DNA of 64,000 nucleotides from Oscillospiraceae bacterium (GTDB lineage Bacteria; Bacillota; Clostridia; Oscillospirales; CAG-272). The notes beneath the pieces are model-generated. The model had not been told where the DNA came from, did not search any database, and saw only the letters and a list, made by a program, of their open reading frames with translations. Below, piece after piece: positions 4,430 through 25,030 of the stretch. The stretch lies in NCBI GenBank assembly GCA_015064415.1, contig SVSG01000008.1, forward strand, positions 13,306-77,305, written 5' to 3'. The first letter of the stretch is position 1. Each line of letters starts with the position of its first letter. Made by a program: the position numbers and the translations under genes.

Positions 4430-5692
4430 TTAATAGATATTGCGTTTCTTGCGACGGACGGCAAAAAAGATGATAAATCCTGTCATGGTGCCAAGAATGA
4501 CGCCGCAGATGGCGTAAATGCCGCCGCTTACGGAAATGTCGGATTTCAGCTCCTCCCACAGGTTGTTCAGCAGCAACAGCTTATCTCCCTTGAGGTTGCG
4601 GTAAGAGGAGGTCTGGACCTCGTTGCCGTCCACGTCCGTGGTGACGTACATTTTTTCGTAGCCGTCATCCTTGATGTCGTTCATGTACGCGACGTACTCC
4701 TCGTCCTCGACCACCAGCTTGTTGGGCGAAGCGTAATAGGTGTACTCCGCGTTGGCGATGGCGGGCTCTGCCGTCAGCATATAGTTGATGTAACGCTCGG
4801 CCACCGTTTTGTTCTGGCTGGAGGCGGGCACGCACATGGCGTCCACGTAAAGGTTGGTGCCCTCGCGCGGGTAATAAAACTCCAGATCCTCGTTGTTTTC
4901 ATACATCGTGAGGTAGTCGCCCGCGTAATATGCCGCGATCGCCGCGGAGCCGTTTTCCATCTTGTTATAGATCTCGTCCATAACGTAGCCCTGCAGGATC
5001 GGCTTTTGCTTTTTCAGCTCCTCCAGCGCTTGGCGCCAGATCGCCTCGTCATCCGTGTTGATCTGATCCCAAAGGCCGAGGTTATACATCGCGGAGCCAA
5101 AGGCGTCGCGGGAGTTGTTGAATTGCAGGATATTGCCCTCGTACTTCTCGTTCCACATCAGATCCCAGGAGCCGATATCCTCCTCGTCCACCATGGTGGT
5201 GTTGTAGATGATACCGATCATGCCGTACAGATAGGGCACCGAGTAATCGTTGTAGCCGTCACCGTTTTTGTCGGGGTCGTAATCGGCGTTCTGGAAATCG
5301 GGCAGGATGTTGCCGATCTCGGGGATGTTGCCGTAGTCCAGCTTGGCCAGCAGCCCCTCGTCAATGAGGCGCTCGATCATATAATCGGAGGGGACGATGA
5401 CATCGTAATTGACGGAGCCGGAGGAGATCTTTGCATACATCGTCTCGTTGCTGGAGAAGGTGGAGTAATTGACCTTGACGCGCTCGCCGTAGGTCTCGTA
5501 GTACCATTCCTCAAACATATCGTTGACGGGAAGGGTGCCCTCCGAGCCGTCGGAGAGATATTCACCCCAGTTGTAGACGTAAAGTGTGGTGATGCCGCCA
5601 CTTTCGCTGTCACAGGAGGTGAGAGCGGGCAACAGCACCGTGCAAAGAAGCGAAAGGGCCAAAAGGGCGGTGAAAAGACGCTTTTTCATCAT
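4430..5692 (-). CDS. potD: Spermidine/putrescine ABC transporter substrate-binding lipoprotein with an extra C-terminal TM segment
   Basis: MMKKRLF...LPALTSCDS lipobox; LYVYNWGEYL PotD signature. GGAGG lies 6 nt upstream of the ATG at 5692, which overlaps the potC stop (ATGA). C-terminal hydrophobic stretch GGIYAICGVILGTMTGFIIFFAV followed by RRKKR. Confidence 0.8.
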   Translation of the reverse strand: MMKKRLFTALLALSLLCTVLLPALTSCDSESGGITTLYVYNWGEYLSDGSEGTLPVNDMFEEWYYETYGERVKVNYSTFSSNETMYAKISSGSVNYDVIVPSDYMIERLIDEGLLAKLDYGNIPEIGNILPDFQNADYDPDKNGDGYNDYSVPYLYGMIGIIYNTTMVDEEDIGSWDLMWNEKYEGNILQFNNSRDAFGSAMYNLGLWDQINTDDEAIWRQALEELKKQKPILQGYVMDEIYNKMENGSAAIAAYYAGDYLTMYENNEDLEFYYPREGTNLYVDAMCVPASSQNKTVAERYINYMLTAEPAIANAEYTYYASPNKLVVEDEEYVAYMNDIKDDGYEKMYVTTDVDGNEVQTSSYRNLKGDKLLLLNNLWEELKSDISVSGGIYAICGVILGTMTGFIIFFAVRRKKRNIY

Positions 5693-6492
5693 TTCGTTCC
5701 TCCTTTGCCTTTCTTTTTGCCGCCTGCAAAATTGACGGCGATGAGGATCAGCAGGATCGTGAGCACAATGATCGAGCAAAGTGCGTACATGCTGAATTTC
5801 ACGTTATGCGAGGTCTGGTTGTAAACGTAGAGCGGCAGGGTCTGGAAATCGGGGGAGCTGACGAAGTGGCTGATGACGAAATCGTCCAGCGACATCGTAA
5901 AGCCAAGCATCAGTCCCGAAATGATGCCGGGGATGATCTGGGGCAGCTCTACCGAGAAAAAGGCGCGTGCGGGGGTGCAGCCAAGGTCCTGCGCCGCCTC
6001 GGAAAGCGACTTATCCAGCTGCTTGAAGCGGGGCATGACGGAAAGCAGGACGTAGGGCAGGTTAAAGGTCACGTGCGCGACCAGCATCGTGCCGAAGCCA
6101 AAAAAGCTTTTGGCGTGCAGAATGCCCGCAAGCGTGACGAAAAGCAGCATCATGGAAACACCGGTCACGATGTCGGGGTTCATCATGGGCACGTTGGTCA
6201 TGGAGTTGACTGCCCCCTTGATATAGCGGTTGCGCATGCGGTGAAGACCCAGCGCGCCGAAGGTGCCGATCACCGTGGCAATGAGCGACGAGGAGATGGC
6301 AAGAATGAGCGAGTTCATGAGCGAGGAGAAGGCCTCCTCGTCCAGGAACAGCTCCTCGTACCACGCGGTGGTAAAGCCGGTGAACTCAGCAAGACTGCCC
6401 GCCTCGTTAAAGGAGAACAAAATCAGTACCGCAATGGGGATGTAGAGCAGGAAGAAAATGATGCCGATGTAGCATTTGGAAAGGATTTTCAT
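5689..6492 (-). CDS. potC: Spermidine/putrescine ABC transporter permease
   Basis: 267 aa multi-TM protein with an EAAQDLG permease motif, in an operon with potA/B/D. Confidence 0.85.
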   Translation of the reverse strand: MKILSKCYIGIIFFLLYIPIAVLILFSFNEAGSLAEFTGFTTAWYEELFLDEEAFSSLMNSLILAISSSLIATVIGTFGALGLHRMRNRYIKGAVNSMTNVPMMNPDIVTGVSMMLLFVTLAGILHAKSFFGFGTMLVAHVTFNLPYVLLSVMPRFKQLDKSLSEAAQDLGCTPARAFFSVELPQIIPGIISGLMLGFTMSLDDFVISHFVSSPDFQTLPLYVYNQTSHNVKFSMYALCSIIVLTILLILIAVNFAGGKKKGKGGTK

Positions 6493-11267: not shown

Positions 11268-11352
11268 GCGGATATGGCGGAATCGGCAGACGCAAACGTT
11301 TAAGGGGCGTTCGGGTAACTCCGTGTGAGTTCAAGTCTCACTATCCGCACCA
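11268..11352 (+). tRNA. tRNA-Leu (class II, long variable arm); the best manual fold gives anticodon AAG; CCA encoded
   Basis: Acceptor GCGGATA/TATCCGC; D arm GCG-GAATCGGCAGA-CGC; anticodon stem AACGT/GCGTT with loop TTAAGGG; 13-nt variable arm; T arm GTGAG-TTCAAGT-CTCAC; ACCA 3' end. Confidence 0.85.
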
Positions 11353-11383
11353 ACTTATGTTGCCTAAATAGATGCAGGCAGCG

Positions 11384-11417
11384 AAACCCCAGAAGCCAAG
11401 CGGCTTCTGGGGTTTTT
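11384..11417 (+). terminator. Intrinsic terminator after tRNA-Leu
   Basis: aaaccccagaagcc-aagc-ggcttctgggg followed by ttttt. Confidence 0.7.
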
Positions 11418-11554
11418 CCATGCCAATTTTTGATTGTAAAATAAAAAGATGCAAATGCCGATTTTCGCGCGCTGATAGGGACATGAACCATTACGCCATA
11501 CACATTACATAAATTTCCCGATGCAATAATACAACATTTTTTCTGTTTTTGGTA

Positions 11555-11583
11555 TTGCATTTTTTCTGAAACTGTGATACAAT
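11555..11583 (+). promoter_or_regulatory. Orphan sigma-A-type promoter with an extended -10
   Basis: TTGCAT (11555-11560), 17-nt spacer, TGaTACAAT (-10 at 11578-11583). No plus-strand ORF follows. Confidence 0.5.
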
Positions 11584-11589
11584 ATTAAT

Positions 11590-11661
11590 GCACAACAAGT
11601 GGTGTGTTTTAGCATATCACGACACCAAGCGGCTATTGGCGTAGCCGCTTGGTGTTTTTTT
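11590..11661 (+). ncRNA. Candidate ~70-nt small RNA (promoter-to-terminator unit)
   Basis: Predicted start about 7 nt after the -10. 13-bp hairpin acaccaagcggct/agccgcttggtgt (11622-11655) plus a T7 run. Its first 28 nt recur at 13187-13214. Confidence 0.4.
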
Positions 11662-11678
11662 ATGCGGTGTAGCATGTG

Positions 11679-11969
11679 TTATCCGTATAGAACGGTTATA
11701 TCATCGTGAGCTTCATAAATCGTGCGACCATCAAATATTTTAGCTTTTTCAAATTCATTTACACAATCAGCGTTGGTTTTTCCGTGACATTTGAAAATAT
11801 AGTTTCCATCTCCAAAGCACTCAAAAATCACGAACTCGACTTGTGTGGGATCCGCTTCGTACGGTTGCGATTCCATGAAATATCTTTTGCCACGATATTC
11901 ATATTCTTTTTCAGGACCGCCCATTGTTAGTAAATCATTGATAAATTCACTCAAAGTATTTCCCTTCAT
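11679..11969 (-). CDS. Small hypothetical protein (96 aa), immunity-like position
   Basis: AAGGGGG RBS about 9 nt upstream of the ATG at 11969. Overlaps the upstream ORF by 23 nt. AT-rich codon usage, unlike the flanking core genes. Confidence 0.55.
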   Translation of the reverse strand: MKGNTLSEFINDLLTMGGPEKEYEYRGKRYFMESQPYEADPTQVEFVIFECFGDGNYIFKCHGKTNADCVNEFEKAKIFDGRTIYEAHDDITVLYG

Positions 11970-12357
11970 CTATGTTTACCCCCTTGAAGAATTTTTTGTA
12001 TTTTTGATACTCGGCACGATTTAATTTGCGCTTTTCTGTTGTTGGATCATTGTGATAATCAATGCCGGGCTTTTGCTGAATGTGGATATGCAAAACATCA
12101 CCTTTCCCCAATGATTTTTCGTGATGATATCCAATTTCCAATACCACTTCGTGATTGGAATTGTATTCACGATATTGGTGAAAAATATTGTCCTTGTCCA
12201 GCAAAACATAACTTGAACTTGAGTGCGCTTCCTCGGGCAATTTTAACGATTTTGAAGAATCCATTGGTTTTAATACTTTAACACCATCAATTTTTCCAAC
12301 GGTATTATAAGTGTACGGAACAGCATTTCCGCTTGCAAAAGTGCCGCGCCCACCCAT
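11947..12357 (-). CDS. Hypothetical protein (136 aa), His-rich (GYHHE, HIHI)
   Basis: AAAGGTGG RBS. Starts 1 nt after the DUF4417 stop. N-terminus MGGRGTFASGN. No family recognised. Confidence 0.55.
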   Translation of the reverse strand: MGGRGTFASGNAVPYTYNTVGKIDGVKVLKPMDSSKSLKLPEEAHSSSSYVLLDKDNIFHQYREYNSNHEVVLEIGYHHEKSLGKGDVLHIHIQQKPGIDYHNDPTTEKRKLNRAEYQKYKKFFKGVNIDEGKYFE

Positions 12358-12358
12358 A

Positions 12359-12982
12359 TCAGCGTACCACCTTTCTGGATTCCATATAATCGATAGGGAT
12401 TATATTTCCTTCCATTTCTGCAAAAGGTGTACCAAAACAAATGATCTGCGAAGGCGCAATTCTTTCAAGCAGTGTATTATAGCCACGCAAAAAATGAAGT
12501 TTGTTTTGCTTGCAACCGATCATTCCGATTGCAACGATTGAATTCTGTTCTACACCGTCAAAACAAAATTCAAAGCTTTGAGCAAGTCCCCAGCTTACTG
12601 TCGGTATAACGGTCAATCCCTTGCTTTGCCAATATGCCCCTACCCAACGATTTTTGGCAACGCTTTCAAGCTGTCGCCACAAACTCATATCACTATAAGT
12701 GGAGAAATCGGGAGAAAGTAAGAAGGCATATTGAGAGTATCGGGATAACGTGCGATCCGGATTGTTGTATATGCCGCTAAAACGGTAGTCATCCACGAAA
12801 AAGTGAACGCCCTTTTCAATGTTTTCGGGGCGGTCATTTGCTCTTGTATCGGAGCAGGCGACCAATTTGATATTTGATGTATCAAGTTCTTGCTTGTGGA
12901 TAAGCGGAATCTCCCATTTACCCACCGTTGCGAATTCATTTCGCATAAAAAGAGGGTTGTCCCTCATATTTTTAGAAGTCAT
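12359..12982 (-). CDS. DUF4417 domain protein
   Basis: GVHFFVDDYRF, FLLSPDFS and WVGAYWQSKGLTVIPTVSW resemble DUF4417. Start chosen at MTSKNM (GGAGG 11 nt upstream); the ORF is open to 13078. Confidence 0.6.
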   Translation of the reverse strand: MTSKNMRDNPLFMRNEFATVGKWEIPLIHKQELDTSNIKLVACSDTRANDRPENIEKGVHFFVDDYRFSGIYNNPDRTLSRYSQYAFLLSPDFSTYSDMSLWRQLESVAKNRWVGAYWQSKGLTVIPTVSWGLAQSFEFCFDGVEQNSIVAIGMIGCKQNKLHFLRGYNTLLERIAPSQIICFGTPFAEMEGNIIPIDYMESRKVVR

Positions 12983-13186
12983 ATGTTTTAGTGCCTCCAA
13001 CACTTTTGAAGTTGTATGGAGACAAAGCGCTGTCGAAAGGTTCTTTGTATGAGCTTTATCTCCAGAACGGGAAACCACTTTTCAATCTTAAACTTGTAAA
13101 TATTATAAGTATGAGAGTGGTTGACCGGCAATGCGGTCTACTATTAAAGCGCACTTCAGAAAGGGTAGGCCAAAACAGCACTTTTT

Positions 13187-13214
13187 TGCACAACAAGTGG
13201 CGTGTTTTAGCATA
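13187..13214 (+). repeat. Second copy of a 28-nt direct repeat (tgcacaacaagtggYgtgttttagcata)
   Basis: 27/28 identical to 11589-11616, in the same orientation. Confidence 0.85.
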
Positions 13215-13286
13215 CCCCTACTGAATAAAGGTGGGTGAACTATTCGATTTTGAGCATCAAAGTATTGGCGTACAATGATGCTTACA

Positions 13287-13829
13287 TTAAACATCCATAG
13301 CGACCGCCTCCTTTAAGTAAATATTGCGTTGATAGCTTGCCGCTTCGAGAGATACTCCGCATTTTTCTACGATCTCCTCAACGGTCATGCCCTCTACGCG
13401 ATCCTTTGGAATCATGAACTCCCCTGCAAAGCATTTTGCCTGCCATTCAGGATCCTTAAAGGAAGGGATTTTCGCATTATCGTATGTTCTTGTCAGGGTA
13501 AATCCGCAGAAGCAAAGCATAAAGAAATGGCCGATCTCATGTGCGATGGTCATGCGATCGCGACCTTCGCCATTGCAAGCACGCTCATAAATCGTTTGCT
13601 TGATGCGAATGTGTCCAGTCGTAATATCGGTTTGCGCATGCTCGTTCCATGGCAGCTCATCATCCTCTACAATCTCATAATCGAAATTGGGGAAGTGAAC
13701 GGTCATGAAATCGAGAAGCGTTACAATAGGGAAATGGAGCTGATCCATGTCACCAAGACTTCGTCGAAAGCTGGTCGCAAGAGCTCGGATGCTTTTGCGA
13801 CCATGGGGTTCTACCATGTACTGACTCAC
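13287..13829 (-). CDS. ImmA/IrrE family metallo-endopeptidase
   Basis: 180 aa. TIAHEIGHFFM (HEXXH) and a downstream EFMIP motif. Immediately downstream of an XRE gene. Confidence 0.75.
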   Translation of the reverse strand: MSQYMVEPHGRKSIRALATSFRRSLGDMDQLHFPIVTLLDFMTVHFPNFDYEIVEDDELPWNEHAQTDITTGHIRIKQTIYERACNGEGRDRMTIAHEIGHFFMLCFCGFTLTRTYDNAKIPSFKDPEWQAKCFAGEFMIPKDRVEGMTVEEIVEKCGVSLEAASYQRNIYLKEAVAMDV

Positions 13830-13835
13830 CGAAAA

Positions 13836-14198
13836 TTAGTCCTCCTTGTTTTTGGAAAGAATGCCGAACAGCTCATCGATCTGTTCAGGGGTAAGGGAAT
13901 CAAATTGACGTGCGAATGACACAGCCAATCTGCGATTAGCAAAGGGCGATGCGGCAATGTCGATTTCAATGACATTGCTGGTTTCCATCACGATTTGCCG
14001 GATGTGGTTGAGTTCAGCTTCAGAAACGTTGTAAAGAGTTGCCAGCTTGTCATACCAAGTCTCTGGGAACTTCTTTTTTCCGTTTTCAACTGCTGAAAGA
14101 AAAGCGGAAGTGACGTTCAGACGGTGAGCCATGTCCTTTAAAATCTCGTTGTTGTGTAATCGTATGTTGGCTAAAATCTGACCCAATTCTGTTTTCAT
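13836..14198 (-). CDS. XRE-family helix-turn-helix transcriptional regulator
   Basis: 120 aa. N-terminal HTH LGQILANIRLHNNEILKDMAHRLNVTSAFLSAVENGKK. Confidence 0.75.
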   Translation of the reverse strand: MKTELGQILANIRLHNNEILKDMAHRLNVTSAFLSAVENGKKKFPETWYDKLATLYNVSEAELNHIRQIVMETSNVIEIDIAASPFANRRLAVSFARQFDSLTPEQIDELFGILSKNKED

Positions 14199-14216
14199 AT
14201 TCGTTCTTCTCCTTTG

Positions 14217-14281
14217 TTAACCCGATTAGGTTAATACTATTATATCACAACTTTTTCGAAAAATCAACCCTGTCAGGTTAA
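14217..14281 (-). promoter_or_regulatory. XRE promoter with two palindromic operators
   Basis: O1 TTAACC-N6-GGTTAA (14217-14234). O2 TCAACC-N6-GGTTAA (14264-14281). On the minus strand, TTGATT (-35, 14267-14262), 17 nt, TGaTATAAT (-10, 14244-14239). O2 overlaps the -35 and O1 lies between the -10 and the RBS. Confidence 0.6.
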
Positions 14282-14310
14282 TTTTTTGAAATTTTTCTGC
14301 AAGTTTCAAA

Positions 14311-14620
14311 ATGCATCTATTAAGGCCACACTTGAAATTGCAAAAATGGTGCACTTTTGAGAAAAGTGACCTTCAAAAAATGCTGAAACCCTTGAAAACA
14401 CCGGGTTTTCGCGTTTTGGCAGATGCATCTAAATTGGCCACACCAGCCAAAACAAAAAAGACGGCAGCTGCCGTCTTTTTTGTTTTTATCCAAGTCGCAG
14501 GCGTGATGGGCGCAGAGCTCTGCAAAGCGGGCAAGATCCGTCTTCTTGAATCCCTACGCAAGCATTTTGAGGGCGGACTTTTCACGATCTTCGTGAAAGT
14601 CCCGCCCTTTTTCGTTTTTC
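14311..14620 (+). repeat. Intergenic repeat family, copy A (full length, two plus-oriented terminator hairpins)
   Basis: About 145 nt aligns with 24845-24985. Hairpins: aaaaaagacggcagctgccgtctttttt (14454-14481) and gggcggacttttcacga/tcgtgaaagtcccgccc (14571-14607) with a T-run. The tail resembles copy C. Confidence 0.75.
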
Positions 14621-14668: not shown

Positions 14669-16480
14669 TTATACAAGCGGGAGCTCGGTCATGCGAAGCT
14701 TGGCGCAGCCGTACGGATACAATTCCACTTCCTTTTCTTCTCCGAAGGGCGTGCGCGATTGTGGCACCTCGGCACAGACCGTATCATATCTCGCTTCAAG
14801 CCCCCAGGGGATTCTGACCACCTTTGCCCTCACCACCACGGGCGGTTTTTTGGAACTGAACGGAATGTCAGAGATCTTGCGCTTTTCTAATCCGAAGAAG
14901 GGTGACGAATAGCCGTATTGCCACTCGGTGGTCGGAATATACTCATAATCGCAATAAGGATATTTTCGCTCGACCCCATTTGTAACGTATTCCAGTCTTT
15001 TTTCCTCAAAGTCGATGGGAAGCGAGAACACGAGCGAGCCGCAACGCACGCATTTCAAATCATGGGGGCGGTCGATCAATACGGGGTGCGCATCAAATTC
15101 AACGTTGATCTGTCTCGTTTCCCTTGCGCTGATCTCAAAGCACAACTCGTTGCAAGGGCCAATCGCGCGGCCGTTGACCTTGATCTCTTTGGCAAAGGAG
15201 GGAACTCTGATCTTGAAGGTGATGTTTTTTTGTGATTCTATCGTATACAAAAAGCTGTTCTCAAAGGGATAGTCGGTTTTTAACGTGATAGACAGCTCAT
15301 CGGTTTTCAGCGACGAGGGGATCGGAACAGAGGAAATGACGGTATCGCCATCGTGCATGAATGCCGAAAGCGCGAATTTGGGCCACCCTTGTCCGAAATT
15401 TGCGGTACAGCAGCCGTAATTGGGTTCAAGCCCGAACAGGTGCGACTCCCTTCCGTTCGTTCCGAATATCGCTCTTGCGGGAAATTTTTGGCAAGCGATT
15501 TGGTTGCTCAGCTGGTCATACTGATGTGCCCACATATCATCGCTGATCGTTGCAGGGAGCGCATTAAAGGCGAGCACCTCGAGCCGTTCTGCCCACTTGC
15601 TCTCTCCCGTGTATGCGAGGAGCCATTCGTAGGAATACATTTGCTCGACCACACCGCAAAGCTCCGTGCCGTGAATGGCGCTGAGCCCCGAAAGGCACTC
15701 ATCCCCCGTAAAGCTTTCCACAGGCATACCGTTGTATGCCTTCAATATGGTCACAAGACGCTCTGCGACGTCCGTATACTCCTTTCCCAAAAGGTCACAG
15801 CTGACCGCCTCGTGCTTAAGCATCATACCGATGTTCACGATATGCGTTTCAAACTTCCAATGATTGACCGGGCGCTTCCAAAGCTTGCTTTGTGCCTCAT
15901 AATCAAGCCCCTGCTCCTTGAGCATCTTCGCAAGCGCAACGATCCATTCCTCCTTGTACCTTTCCCACAAAAAATTGAGCGCCACAAAGCCCTCATACCA
16001 GCGTGAGCGCCCCCAATCGAAAAGAGAGATGGTTTTGCTTGCAAGCAATTCGTAATAGTTTTTCATCACGCGATAGAGCGCATCGGGGATCCGTTCGTCG
16101 CCCGAGCATTCGTAATAGACCACAAGCACCTTGGAGATCAACTGCACCGCCCAGGTGTCGTACTCTGGGATCGCTTCATCGGCGCAGGGGCAGATCCATC
16201 CACTCGGTTTTTGATGGGAGAGGATCGCATCGATATAGGTTTTCGCCCTTGCGATCATATCTTCATTTTCCAAAAGATAAGCAAGCGGAATGAAGCCGTC
16301 AAGCCAATACGGCACTCTTTCCCAGCCCTCCGCGTTTCCGCCTATCCATGCACTGTCTTTTACGTCTCTCCAGACCTTGTCCAGATTTCCGGCAAGGCCT
16401 TGTGCCTGTATTTCCAGCTGACGCCTAAGCCAGCCATTTGGCTTCAATTCCTTTGGGGTATAAAAGCTATATTTTTTCAT
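14669..16480 (-). CDS. Putative beta-L-arabinofuranosidase-like glycoside hydrolase (GH127/GH146-type)
   Basis: 603 aa. N-terminus NGWLRRQLEIQAQGLAGNLD...WERVPYWLDGFIPLAYLL resembles DUF1680/GH127-related proteins. ATG at 16480 lies 7 nt after GGGAG. Family call is from memory only. Confidence 0.5.
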   Translation of the reverse strand: MKKYSFYTPKELKPNGWLRRQLEIQAQGLAGNLDKVWRDVKDSAWIGGNAEGWERVPYWLDGFIPLAYLLENEDMIARAKTYIDAILSHQKPSGWICPCADEAIPEYDTWAVQLISKVLVVYYECSGDERIPDALYRVMKNYYELLASKTISLFDWGRSRWYEGFVALNFLWERYKEEWIVALAKMLKEQGLDYEAQSKLWKRPVNHWKFETHIVNIGMMLKHEAVSCDLLGKEYTDVAERLVTILKAYNGMPVESFTGDECLSGLSAIHGTELCGVVEQMYSYEWLLAYTGESKWAERLEVLAFNALPATISDDMWAHQYDQLSNQIACQKFPARAIFGTNGRESHLFGLEPNYGCCTANFGQGWPKFALSAFMHDGDTVISSVPIPSSLKTDELSITLKTDYPFENSFLYTIESQKNITFKIRVPSFAKEIKVNGRAIGPCNELCFEISARETRQINVEFDAHPVLIDRPHDLKCVRCGSLVFSLPIDFEEKRLEYVTNGVERKYPYCDYEYIPTTEWQYGYSSPFFGLEKRKISDIPFSSKKPPVVVRAKVVRIPWGLEARYDTVCAEVPQSRTPFGEEKEVELYPYGCAKLRMTELPLV

Positions 16481-16615
16481 CAAATCACTCCCTTGTTTTT
16501 TTGTTTATTATATCACACAAAATTTTTGTTTGAAATGGTTAAAAAATCACATTTTATTGACAAAATCACACAAAGGTGCTATACTTTTTTCAAGGTTGGG
16601 TTGGGAGGTTTATTT

Positions 16616-17383
16616 ATGATAGGGATTGATTTGAATAAAAACGTCATCTATAAATTTGCATCCTTTCGTTATTTTGAAAACGCGGAGCATCACGTCACCC
16701 GCTTTTGCAAGGATAACGTTTTGCTTTTGGTCTTTGACGGGGTGTTGCGTTTTTCCGAGGACGGCGTGGAAAAAGAGGTTCGTGCGGGTGAATATTACGT
16801 GCAAAGAAAGAACGTCTATCAAGCAGGCGAGATCGCAAGCGACGAGCCGAAGTATTTTTACGTGCATTTTGATGCCGAATGGAGCGATAGCGAGGAGAAT
16901 TTTCCTCAAAAAGGGAAATTCAACCTCACAGAGCTTTCCGAGCTTATGAAAAAGCTGGATGCTGTTGCCCACGGGGATAGCACACACGCCGAGAGACAAT
17001 ATCTGTTTCTCAAGCTGATACTGATGCTCAAAGAAAAGCCGCTTACAAGCCGCACGGCAAGTCGGCTTTCCGATTATATAGAGGAAAATCTTGCCAAGAT
17101 CTCTTCGCTATCCGACATTTGCAACACCTTTCATTACAGCAAAAACTACATCATACGACTATTCAAAAAGGAATTTGGGCTCTCTCCGATACAGTATATC
17201 AACGATGCAAAAATAAAGAGAGCCATGTATTTGTTAGAGACAACCTCAAGACCGGTCAAGGAGATCACGGAAGAATGCGGGTATTCCGACTATCCTTATT
17301 TTTATAAGCGCTTCGTACGCAAAACGGGATCATCGCCGCTGCGATGGAGAGCGCAAATGCAAGAAAACCCGCTGATAAAATGA
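16616..17383 (+). CDS. AraC-family transcriptional regulator
   Basis: GGGAGG RBS. Cupin-like N-domain plus C-terminal AraC HTH (YSKNYIIRLFKKEFGLSPIQYINDAKIKRAMYLL...GYSDYPYFYKRF). Divergent from the GH gene. Confidence 0.8.
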   Translation: MIGIDLNKNVIYKFASFRYFENAEHHVTRFCKDNVLLLVFDGVLRFSEDGVEKEVRAGEYYVQRKNVYQAGEIASDEPKYFYVHFDAEWSDSEENFPQKGKFNLTELSELMKKLDAVAHGDSTHAERQYLFLKLILMLKEKPLTSRTASRLSDYIEENLAKISSLSDICNTFHYSKNYIIRLFKKEFGLSPIQYINDAKIKRAMYLLETTSRPVKEITEECGYSDYPYFYKRFVRKTGSSPLRWRAQMQENPLIK

Positions 17384-17401
17384 GTTTTTGTGACGAAAAA
17401 C

Positions 17402-17446
17402 GCCAAAGCCCTTGAAAACACCGGGTTTTTGGGTTTTGGCAAATGC
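17402..17446 (+). repeat. Intergenic repeat family, partial copy
   Basis: gccaaagcccttgaaaacaccgggtttttgggttttggcaaatgca is nearly identical to 24912-24957 and 14382-14427. Confidence 0.7.
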
Positions 17447-17642
17447 AAGCAGCGCTTTGTGAAATTTTGCTCCTTTTTTAAGGGAAATATTGAAAAAATA
17501 TAAAATATATGGTATATTGAAGGTGCCGAATCAAATCCGTATTGCGGCGTATAGCGTGTCAGCTTTGATCACAAGGGCGCCTTAAAAACTTTGGAAGGTC
17601 GGCGCAATTTCTTGATAATAATATGAGGAGGAAAGCGCAGCA

Positions 17643-24843: not shown

Positions 24844-25030
24844 GTGCATCTATGAAGGTCACGCTTGAAATCGCAAAATGTGGATTTTCGATGAAATGCA
24901 GTGATAAAAAAGCTGAAATCCTTGAAAACACCGGGTTTTTGGGTTTTGGCAGATGTATCTAAATTGGCCACACCGCCAAAAGAAAAGGGAGTGCTTCGGC
25001 ACTCCCTTTTCTTTCGTTCAAGCCGTGGCT
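24844..25030 (+). repeat. Intergenic repeat family, copy B (separates the two island modules)
   Basis: Aligns with copy A over about 145 nt. Terminator hairpin aaaagggagtgc-ttcg-gcactccctttt (24983-25010). Confidence 0.75.

Follow-up and report, generated by a model that had tools for sequence, protein, structure and literature searches.

The question raised by a 64-kb stretch of the Oscillospiraceae contig SVSG01000008.1 (the window, by which we mean the whole 64,000 nucleotides analyzed) is what function, if any, is served by a block of low guanine-plus-cytosine (GC) content that adjoins its tRNA-Leu gene. A sequence-only reading of the window had described a low-GC block of ~3 kb directly after the tRNA, had seen there five minus-strand genes encoding an XRE repressor, an ImmA/IrrE protease with a HEXXH motif, a DUF4417 protein and two small open reading frames (ORFs), and had left the choice between a minimal inducible toxin or defence cassette and the regulatory remnant of a decayed element. 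The description held: ARAGORN places the tRNA at 11268-11352, GC falls from 0.55-0.62 at 8.8-11.2 kb to 0.37-0.47 across 11.2-14.4 kb, and all five genes are present and intact within a block of about 3 kb. As to the choice, the recurrence of the block as a self-contained unit in other genomes supports the cassette. We propose that it is a phage-derived toxin-immunity cassette gated by an XRE/ImmA switch, in which the toxin depends on DUF4417. We give this overall model, whose biochemistry and mode of delivery are inferred, a probability of about 0.6.

The cargo of the block consists of three genes on the minus strand. The first encodes the DUF4417 protein (12359-12982, 207 amino acids), which matches PF14386 with an E-value of 2.2e-48 (164.6 bits against a gathering cut-off of 28.9) and also phrog_8680 and phrog_940. 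Its true start is the ATG at 12982, since nearly all of the 120 listed homologues are 207 amino acids long and a GGAGG precedes this codon; the mechanically called ORF (12359-13078, with a GTG start at 13078) was rejected as too long by comparison with the homologues. The second gene, orf136 (11947-12357, minus strand), encodes a putative toxin, a basic protein of 136 amino acids (isoelectric point, pI, 8.6) with an MGGRG head, a predicted all-beta domain and a C-terminal helix. The codons of the head, ATGGGTGGGCGCGGC at 12343-12357 on the minus strand, form the only such start in the window. Directly downstream lies orf96 (11679-11969, minus strand), which encodes an acidic protein of 96 amino acids (pI 4.6), the putative cognate immunity protein or antidote. 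Because orf136 begins 2 nucleotides past the DUF4417 stop and orf96 overlaps orf136 by 23 nucleotides, the three genes are probably translationally coupled.

To place the block in a wider context we searched a single representative genome of each species, which yielded 267 confirmed stretches encoding orf136 relatives; 80 loci were kept, and the five families were mapped on them with profiles built here. The relatives come mostly from gut and rumen Clostridia, with others in Negativicutes, Actinobacteria and bins carrying other labels; cultured carriers of the cassette include Mobilibacterium timonense Marseille-P3194 and an Olsenella uli isolate. The gene order XRE-ImmA-DUF4417-orf136-orf96 is repeated in dozens of species and in unrelated chromosomal contexts. 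Among the 73 loci with sufficient sequence, 60 have DUF4417 directly upstream of orf136; directly downstream comes an orf96 homologue at 72 of 75, and an ImmA-like gene is found upstream on the same strand at 40 of 60. The conserved core is the trio of DUF4417, an MGGRG-headed protein and a small acidic protein, and the switch is attached at about two thirds of the loci (40/60).

The chromosomal surroundings of the cassette differ from locus to locus. At locus L001 (MT835546.1) the block lies between CotH and PSP1/holB, in one species (L002-L007) it adjoins a type I restriction-modification system and Fic, in an Anaerovibrio-type genome (L008-L012) it adjoins an MmeI-type enzyme, and in another genome it is found between a metal-resistance operon and rpmE/prfA; throughout L001-L013 the neighbours are housekeeping or defence genes. 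The best-match record, MT835546.1, is labelled 'UNVERIFIED: Bacteriophage sp.' (35 kb), and we rejected this label since the record encodes ComM/Mg-chelatase, phosphoglucomutase, CotH, PSP1, DNA polymerase III delta' and an Orn/Lys/Arg decarboxylase and is actually a bacterial chromosomal scaffold. Across the 127 nearest neighbours in 80 genomes, the commonest Pfam families were helix-turn-helix (HTH) domains, Fic, methyltransferases and ResIII; integrase, terminase and phage structural families were not among the commonest. PADLOC matches among the same neighbours were to capH-like genes (11), SoFic (4), MADS components, AbiD, DrmD and restriction enzymes of types I, II, IIG and III. At no locus inspected did the block sit inside a complete prophage or integrative and conjugative element (ICE), an arrangement that would have made it a simple remnant. 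Within the window, as had been claimed, inspection of the ORFs of 9-17 kb revealed neither an integrase or recombinase gene nor any structural, packaging or conjugation gene in or next to the block.

The genes themselves bear the marks of maintenance. Against close relatives the nonsynonymous substitution rate (dN) is 0.13-0.32 and the synonymous rate (dS) is saturated, and all cassette genes are intact and under strong purifying selection. The island-type DUF4417 proteins (120 homologues listed) are 74-93% identical among themselves and only 34-41% identical to 80 viral-contig copies (kept from 453 relatives), indicating that island-type DUF4417 is a group of its own. These comparisons indicate that a self-contained five-gene cassette, spread horizontally, is present here in an intact copy.

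DUF4417 is also a phage gene, and in phages it is again accompanied by an MGGRG-headed partner. A gene with an MGGRG start lay at or just past DUF4417 in all five phage loci first inspected: an unannotated ORF over the stop of L5 gp1, gp121 of Crossroads, an ORF in MT835767 and short ORFs in Javan386 and MM1. An MGGRG start was present at the DUF4417 stop in 52 of 80 DUF4417-encoding viral contigs, usually with a 10-nucleotide overlap, and 75 of 85 phage loci contained an ORF with a start codon followed by GGRG at most 2.6 kb from DUF4417 (flanking copies and alternative starts included). By our rough estimate, chance would provide about one MGGRG-type occurrence in all six frames. The codons used for the head differ (GGC, GGT or GGA for Gly; AGA, CGC or CGT for Arg), and with synonymous codons varying freely, the head is conserved at the protein level. 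The DUF4417 side of the pair is recognizable as well, with the motifs HFFVDDYRF, SPDFS, NRW and VIPTxSW common to the window protein, L5 gp1 and MM1 ORF28. In the collection of papers searched, those that mention DUF4417 do not report the DUF4417-MGGRG link, and nothing relevant on 'MGGRG' turned up.

What stands behind the head is not constant. The parts of the phage proteins that follow MGGRG fall into 20 clusters with no BLAST link between them; some are recognizable toxins, and an orf136-like domain is among them. SororFago gp2 consists of MGGRG, a Gly-rich linker and a papain-fold glutamine deamidase toxin domain (PF15644, Gln_amidase, 2e-11); gp2 of Gordonia phage JSwag, already annotated as a VIP2-like toxin, consists of MGGRG, a linker and an ADP-ribosyltransferase (PF03496, ADPrib_exo_Tox, 4e-21); L5 gp2 carries DUF3626. 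Compared among these three actinophages, gp1 (DUF4417) shows 73-83% identity and gp4 (HNH) 59-77%, the gp2 domain is different in each, and the gp3 proteins, of 83-105 amino acids with a pI of 4.1-4.8, have no detectable mutual similarity. Exchange of gp2 and gp3 between a constant gp1 and gp4 represents a swapped toxin-plus-immunity cassette, in the trio layout seen in the window. On phage contigs the DUF4417-MGGRG pair adjoins portal, MuF-type minor head protein and terminase genes. Effectors encoded in such a head/packaging module are believed to be loaded into heads and injected (PMC3482391, PMC5576092, PMC9503650). Since the pair is common to phage packaging modules, the cargo appears to be phage-derived even though the block is no prophage remnant.

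DUF4417 itself looks like the constant, enzyme-like partner of the MGGRG protein. Its invariant polar residues include H60, D64, D65, D92, K110, R112, E145 and C157, and its AlphaFold2 model is alpha/beta with a predicted local distance difference test score (pLDDT) of 76. Sequence, profile and Foldseek searches of the PDB gave no significant match to it (best Foldseek E 0.07), the top matches, all insignificant, being mostly TIM-barrel enzymes that include tRNA-guanine transglycosylase and endonuclease IV.

Several separate observations concern DUF4417 and its phage partners. At L008-L011 (about 4625-6257, minus strand) a second, divergent trio stands back-to-back with the main trio and comprises a DUF4417 protein of ~220 amino acids (E 2e-25 to the island profile), a 125-amino-acid protein starting MGRFKGN and a protein of 195-202 amino acids; it suggests that the DUF4417 system has further variants, in which the head motif is less strict. 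In Pseudoscardovia suis DSM 24744 (L078, 6161-7402) a seeming DUF4417-orf136 fusion of 413 amino acids looked like a sign that the two proteins work together, but we rejected it, as it is a frameshifted DUF4417 whose out-of-frame tail enters orf136, either a pseudogene or a sequencing error by the look of it. The L5 ORF (NC_001335, L098, 1081-1419), unannotated and starting MGGRGSKGGPGPG, overlaps the stop of gene 1 and lies in another frame than annotated gene 2 (start 1305, DUF3626). Head and toxin body form one gene 2 in SororFago and JSwag, so L5 gene 2 may be mis-started, affected by a sequencing error or dependent on a frameshift. In the streptococcal phages, MM1 ORF29 (L096, 3964-4710) and Javan386_0026 (L099, 3489-4304) come after a ParB-DUF4417 gene. 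They have an N-terminal domain of ~65 amino acids, an internal GGRG with a Gly-rich stretch and a RadC/JAB-like HNHPxGxxxxSxxD motif, match no Pfam family and belong to phrog_5057, whose function is unknown. The internal GGRG hints at a processing site.

The argument that orf136 and orf96 form a toxin-immunity pair comes from the behaviour of the two genes across loci. The median pI is 9.15 for the orf136 family and 4.44 for the orf96 family. More than one orf136 is present at 12 of the 80 loci and more than one orf96 at 27, and orf96 copies outnumber orf136 copies at 21. An example is L043, where four orf136 and nine orf96 copies follow in a row; L040 has three pairs, and further tandem arrays are found at L019, L021, L023, L034, L057, L069 and L072. 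Copies of orf136 truncated at the 5' end occur at L032 and L047, a chimera at L072 joins the start of orf96 to the end of DUF4417, and orphan orf136 copies keep the 3' end of DUF4417 upstream. The truncated copies, the chimera and the orphans appear to be footprints of cassette displacement by recombination, and together with the arrays and the extra orf96 genes they conform to the hallmark of polymorphic toxin-immunity loci.

The two proteins also change together. Subtypes pair consistently, EIGYHHE orf136 proteins with MKGNTL..GGPEKEF orf96 proteins and EIAYHPEP with MINGN..YYGDER. Over 83 pairs the identities of orf136 and orf96 are correlated (Mantel r 0.67, reached by 0 of 999 permutations), a value to which shared ancestry contributes. 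Mean identity is 0.69 in the first 30 residues of orf136, 0.48 in the rest of the protein and 0.33 in orf96. Two database proteins are orf136-orf96 read-through fusions, which we count as weak evidence of pairing. From this behaviour we infer that orf136 is a toxin and orf96 its cognate immunity protein. Neither Pfam, PHROG nor PADLOC has a match to orf96, PDB sequence and profile searches returned nothing usable, and all 120 of its listed homologues are unnamed or 'hypothetical', which marks orf96 as an apparently new family. Imm50 and Imm53, the known Ntox24 immunities, do not match it.

The orf136 family is similarly free of names: its 588 homologue clusters are all unnamed, and none carries a Pfam domain. 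Its members are 45-96% identical, against 74-93% for DUF4417. A profile search of 1.84 billion representative proteins returned 277 relatives; the 150 listed are all at most 254 amino acids long and most start at the MGGRG head, suggesting that the domain does not form the end of some known giant secreted protein. The AlphaFold2 model consists of a beta meander and a C-terminal helix (pLDDT 82), with residues 1-12 below 50 and predicted to be disordered. Eleven positions, M1, G2, G3, R4, G5, G10, K27, P41, Y50, H90 and H92, are invariant across 94 island and phage sequences. Sequence, profile and Foldseek searches found nothing in the PDB, so that the Foldseek check suggested by the sequence-only reading gave no significant match for either the DUF4417 or the orf136 model. 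The model does match three predicted phage structures (E 2e-4 to 6e-4, template modelling score ~0.5), one of them a 406-amino-acid protein annotated 'minor capsid protein'; this fold match is a lead only.

A second lead points to Ntox24 (PF15529). Comparison of profiles with hhalign aligned residues 1-77 of the orf136 family to the phage family phrog_9479 with 88.8% probability, and phrog_9479 has itself a sub-threshold match to Ntox24. The window protein does not match Ntox24; two of 94 family members do, with an E-value of 0.0018, but their 19 bits fall short of the cut-off of 24. Ntox24 is described as 'all-beta; Y, H, H', with which the all-beta model and the invariant Y50, H90 and H92 agree, and orf136 may possibly be an Ntox24-like metal-independent ribonuclease (RNase). 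A DUF3152 match (12 of 94 members, 19.8 bits against a cut-off of 25.1) led nowhere. No MuF domain was found in the orf136 family.

Upstream of the trio lie the two regulatory genes. The XRE-family HTH repressor (13836-14198, minus strand, 120 amino acids) matches HTH_31 (7.9e-07, 29.7 bits against a cut-off of 27) and weakly matches PADLOC capH (3e-03). The ImmA/IrrE-type M78 zinc peptidase (13287-13829, minus strand, 180 amino acids) matches Peptidase_M78 (2.9e-08, 34 bits against a cut-off of 22) and carries HEIGH at residues 97-101 as its HExxH motif. It also matches phrog_87 (metallo-protease) and PADLOC capP (1.2e-11), and covers positions 51-148 of the 242 in the capP profile, the catalytic part only. 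A promoter scan recovered the operon promoter that had been noted at 14239-14267 (TTGATT-17-TATAAT with an extended TG, minus strand). Flanking it at 14217-14281 on the minus strand are the palindromes TTAACCCGATTAGGTTAA and TCAACCCTGTCAGGTTAA, putative XRE operators. A search for TTAACC-N6-GGTTAA with at most two mismatches gave two matches only in the window, at 14217-14234 and 14264-14281, and the position of the palindromes on both sides of the promoter supports autoregulation by XRE. At other loci an XRE gene was detected with jackhmmer in 20 of 60, and the upstream gene matches PADLOC capH in a further 11, with E-values down to 1.6e-15. The switch would regulate the cargo as well.

The gap of 304 nucleotides between ImmA and DUF4417 may hold further control elements. 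A promoter-like site on the minus strand (13102-13131, TTGCCG-18-TATAAT), recovered by a consensus scan only, is a possible internal promoter upstream of DUF4417; no XRE-type palindrome was found near it. A long imperfect inverted repeat or hairpin occupies 13156-13224 on the minus strand, and for RNA spanning the entire gap the predicted fold reaches a z-score of -5.8. Comparable long inverted repeats are found at the same gap position at L021, L033, L040, L052, L060, L068, L079, L086, L087 and L094; their sequence varies between loci, and their position and form recur. The hairpin may serve as an operator for a further regulator, as an attenuator or RNA element, or as part of an antisense RNA. 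At several loci an A-run and then a hairpin stand just past the ImmA stop, where by their sequence they would act as a terminator for the opposite strand.

These results can be combined in the following model. In an unstressed cell, XRE would sit on the two palindromes at its own promoter and keep the operon low. DNA damage or phage infection would activate the ImmA-type zinc peptidase, XRE would be cleaved and the operon expressed, as in ImmR/ImmA, DdrO/IrrE and CapH/CapP. The toxin would be orf136, small, basic and all-beta with an invariant Y, H and H and possibly an Ntox24-like metal-independent RNase, and the acidic orf96 would bind and neutralize it. DUF4417 would recognize the toxin by its MGGRG N-terminus, which is invariant and disordered, and would then process, modify or load it; that DUF4417 acts on or through this head is suggested by the strict linkage of the genes, their translational coupling and the invariance and disorder of the head. 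Delivery to other cells would be the most likely use of the toxin, as the spare immunity genes suggest that toxins arrive from other cells. The least certain step is the route, for which a candidate would be hitch-hiking in phage or phage-like particles of the same stressed cell; particles are suggested as the vehicle because the phage relatives sit in head modules.

This last step can be taken further, and we do so tentatively, at odds well short of even. DUF4417 and the MGGRG head may constitute an unrecognized, non-MuF route by which phage particles are armed, and the chromosomal cassettes may be capsid-less free-riders that load helper particles. The same damage signal would induce both prophages and cassette, and orf96 would protect kin, which would explain the arrays of spare immunity genes.

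Some of our results weigh against the proposed model. Toxicity, binding, cleavage and induction are all predictions. The fold of DUF4417 is not assignable, and what it would do to the MGGRG head is guesswork. The phage loci yielded no orf96 homologue, and neither orf136 nor orf96 matches a curated toxin or immunity family. The connection of orf136 with Ntox24 is indirect and below threshold, a lead rather than membership. Fusion of orf136 to a known trafficking domain was seen neither among the 150 listed relatives nor in Pfam searches of orf136, and no capsid, lysis or secretion genes lie near the block in the window. About one third of the loci are without a detectable ImmA, suggesting that the switch is optional, and the promoter-like site and large hairpin in the gap mean that the cargo may be transcribed or controlled apart from the XRE promoter.

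The chief competitor keeps the toxin within the cell. Here orf136 and orf96 would be the toxin-antitoxin-type effector of an intracellular abortive-infection or defence system, with the XRE/ImmA pair increasing expression upon infection in the manner of CapH/CapP, DUF4417 sensing phage or activating the toxin, the infected cell killed or arrested and nothing leaving it. Several of the findings above suit such a system: capP is the best PADLOC match of the window ImmA (1.2e-11), upstream HTH genes match capH at 11 loci, the cassettes often adjoin restriction-modification, SoFic, MADS, AbiD and DISARM genes, and orf136 is small and stand-alone with no export signal or trafficking domain. In addition, CapH/CapP-like pairs are known beside diverse defence operons (bioRxiv 10.1101/2022.04.27.489752), and Ntox24-type domains occur in toxin-antitoxin systems as well (PMC3482391). 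However, the unpartnered extra orf96 genes (21/80 loci) and the tandem diversified pairs fit incoming toxins and not a private suicide module. The phage counterparts lie in head/packaging modules with classical offensive toxin domains, the regulators are co-directional and not divergent like CapH/CapP, and the cargo matches no PADLOC model: a search of PADLOC-DB v2.0.0 with DUF4417, orf136 and orf96 gave no family at E-values up to 0.1, candidate systems included. We consider intracellular defence unlikely, though a serious contender.

Alternatively, the effector proper may be DUF4417, such as a nuclease or an enzyme that modifies nucleic acids, related to TIM-barrel enzymes, with orf136 as a variable specificity or regulatory subunit and orf96 as its inhibitor. 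DUF4417 is the most conserved of the trio and has enzyme-like invariant polar residues, its weak fold matches include endonuclease IV and tRNA-guanine transglycosylase, some phage records annotate it as 'nuclease', and its phage copies are frequently joined to a ParB-CTPase-fold domain (bioRxiv 10.1101/2025.10.10.680097). But the 'nuclease' label derives from the ParB-like domain, which is absent from the window protein, the fold matches are not significant (best E 0.07), and the MGGRG partners in phages carry autonomous, recognized toxin domains, unlike specificity subunits. This arrangement is improbable in our view. The remaining explanation, and the one we find least credible by far, is that the block is the regulatory end of a lost prophage or ICE, retained by chance at a tRNA integration site and with no current function: low GC, the adjoining tRNA gene, the occurrence of XRE/ImmA pairs in prophages and ICEs and the mainly phage distribution of DUF4417 (495 phage records) would all suit it, but a decaying end does not fit five intact genes of family-typical lengths under strong purifying selection, the recurrence of the same unit without integrase or structural genes in many species and at unrelated loci, and a DUF4417 group separate from the viral copies (74-93% identity among islands, 34-41% to viral copies).

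The limits of the cassette in the window can be placed approximately. The tRNA-Leu(aag) gene (11268-11352, plus strand; Rfam tRNA, 46 bits) is the only tRNA that ARAGORN finds in the window and is a host border gene outside the cassette; an Rfam scan of 11-15 kb gave nothing above threshold except this tRNA. At other loci a tRNA lies within ~600 nucleotides of the module in about 6 of 60 cases, with differing tRNA identities. After the tRNA, a perfect 14-bp hairpin followed by a T-run (11384-11415, plus strand; inverted repeat I25 and sequence inspection) is likely the terminator of the tRNA gene. The cassette proper appears to span about 11552-14330. At its left end, 11552-11678 (minus strand; repeat D2, inverted repeat I1) forms the 3' non-coding tail of the cassette, which shares ~71% identity with the sequence that flanks an orf96 copy of L016 on its 3' side and contains a 16-bp hairpin at 11621-11656. 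We considered whether 11353-11678 might be a decayed extra copy of orf96, and rejected this since the search gave no signal and no orf96 remnant is detectable.

Two repeats bracket parts of the block. The 35-nucleotide direct repeat D2 has copies at 11589-11623 and 13187-13221 that are 89% identical and enclose the three cargo genes; the first lies beside the 3' hairpin past orf96, and the second supplies the left arm and the loop of the hairpin between ImmA and DUF4417. D2 was rejected as a cassette boundary or recombination site common to loci, as it is present only in contigs of this organism. The 19-nucleotide inverted repeat I9 (arms 11358-11376 and 14312-14330, 17 of 19 positions complementary) encloses the whole block, close to the very limits that the sequence-only reading had given, where by our estimate ~0.1 such pairs per 6.5 kb are expected by chance. 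No equivalents were found at other loci and no transposase is present, and the significance of I9 is uncertain. Conserved terminal repeats of a mobile unit were not found, and nucleotide homology between loci ends at the coding regions. A search for an empty site with contigs from four runs of the same study over 8.5-17.5 kb gave short aligned fragments only, with no junction that skips the block, and the exact limits of the insertion are approximate.

On the right, an intergenic repeat of ~52 nucleotides with the core CCCTTGAAAACACCGGGTTTT occurs at 14376-14427, 17396-17447 and 24919-24939, in the same orientation and each time past a gene end. It looks like a host repeat, either REP-like or terminator-associated, and its three copies in the window suggest that the right limit of the cassette lies before 14376. 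Between the cassette and the GH127-like gene, a perfect palindrome of 19+19 nucleotides at 14449-14486 (AAAACAAAAAAGACGGCAG/CTGCCGTCTTTTTTGTTTT) has A- and T-runs on both sides and by its form is a bidirectional terminator. The genes that flank the block are ordinary ones, for GluQ-tRNA synthetase, a metallo-beta-lactamase-fold protein, a GH127-like glycosidase and an AraC regulator. Past 14.4 kb, GC climbs back to only ~0.49-0.54, and across 14669-17383, which holds the GH127-like glycosidase and the divergent AraC-type regulator, it is 0.42-0.54, below that of the flank at 8.8-11.2 kb. The sequence on the right-hand side of the tRNA may be a patchwork of acquired pieces.

DUF4417 is known from hundreds of sequenced phages, among them the well-studied L5-type mycobacteriophages and pneumococcal MM1, and the proposed model gives it a testable context as the constant partner of an MGGRG-marked polymorphic effector family. 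The known bacterial conflict systems would gain two putative families, the toxin family of orf136 and the immunity family of orf96, both common in Firmicutes of the gut and rumen, and the range of cargo governed by XRE/ImmA (CapH/CapP-like) stress switches would widen. If loading into heads were true, one could see how phage effectors that stand alone get to the capsid without fusion to a structural protein, and a new type of minimal element would be defined, one that uses helper phages to deliver its toxin. The five-residue tag could find use in loading proteins into phage particles.

How the cassette relates to known systems can be considered first for its switch. Repressor cleavage is established for ImmR/ImmA, DdrO/IrrE and CapH/CapP (bioRxiv 10.1101/2022.04.27.489752; PMC13228613; PMC10904395). 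Like ImmR/ImmA of ICEBs1 and Bacillus prophages, DdrO/IrrE of Deinococcus and CapH/CapP, the window has an XRE repressor beside an M78/COG2856 HExxH peptidase and palindromic operators at the promoter, and derepression by proteolysis after DNA damage would be expected. In contrast to CapP, the window peptidase is short (180 amino acids) with no GAF-type sensor domain evident, and its pair is co-directional with the cargo and upstream of it, whereas CapH/CapP is divergent (bioRxiv 10.1101/2022.04.27.489752). The cargo trio is not among the operons reported with the three regulator pairs, and unlike them the switch is missing from about one third of the cassettes. By their catalytic domain the regulators are members of the ImmA/IrrE/CapP-type family, with neither the sensor domain nor the divergent layout that are specific to CapP.

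The closest counterparts of the phage MGGRG genes are the MuF (SPP1 gp7-like) toxins (PMC3482391; PMC5576092). Both are phage-borne and located in the head/packaging module, both combine a constant N-terminus with swappable C-terminal toxins (Tox-PL1/Gln_amidase, ADP-ribosyltransferase and Ntox24-like domains), and in both a small ORF follows the toxin gene; the orf136 model, moreover, matches part of a 'minor capsid protein'. The constant part of the MGGRG proteins, however, is five residues with a short or Gly-rich linker and no MuF domain, and the constant partner is a separate DUF4417 gene. The chromosomal cassettes differ further in having no head genes and in carrying immunity-gene arrays and an XRE/ImmA switch, and the window cassette has neither a MuF domain in the same polypeptide nor a location in a head module. 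Ntox24, a predicted metal-independent RNase of all-beta fold with conserved Y, H and H (PMC3482391), occurs both in polymorphic toxins, MuF-linked ones included, and in pairs resembling toxin-antitoxin systems. The cassette does not conform to a type II toxin-antitoxin module, a self-regulating gene pair whose antitoxin has a DNA-binding domain and usually comes first: orf96 follows the putative toxin and has no recognizable DNA-binding domain, regulation appears to come from a separate XRE/ImmA pair, and DUF4417 is a third, obligatory conserved gene.

Other delivered toxins resemble the cassette in layout. The S8-PTS system (PMC9424270) likewise combines an enzyme, encoded by a tightly linked gene, with a polymorphic toxin plus an immunity protein, but its toxins have a signal peptide and receptor-binding domain and its enzyme is a subtilase, whereas the cassette has no signal peptide, its partner is DUF4417 and the recognition element appears to be the extreme N-terminus. 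Colicin and pyocin operons share the order of toxin then small cognate immunity gene, a repressor responsive to DNA damage, and the accumulation of orphan immunity genes in genomes. Unlike them, the cassette is without receptor-binding and translocation domains or a lysis gene, uses XRE/ImmA in place of LexA and includes DUF4417. With polymorphic toxins at large the cassette shares a constant N-terminus joined to many unrelated domains (the MGGRG head and its 20 tail clusters), an adjacent co-varying immunity gene (72/75 loci, Mantel r 0.67, and gp2/gp3 of the actinophages), and tandem orphan cassettes with signs of recombination; an N-terminal domain of a known export or trafficking route is the feature that it does not have. 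What is new, overall, is the constant partner DUF4417, the five-residue N-terminal signature, the toxin and immunity families, and the optional XRE/ImmA switch.

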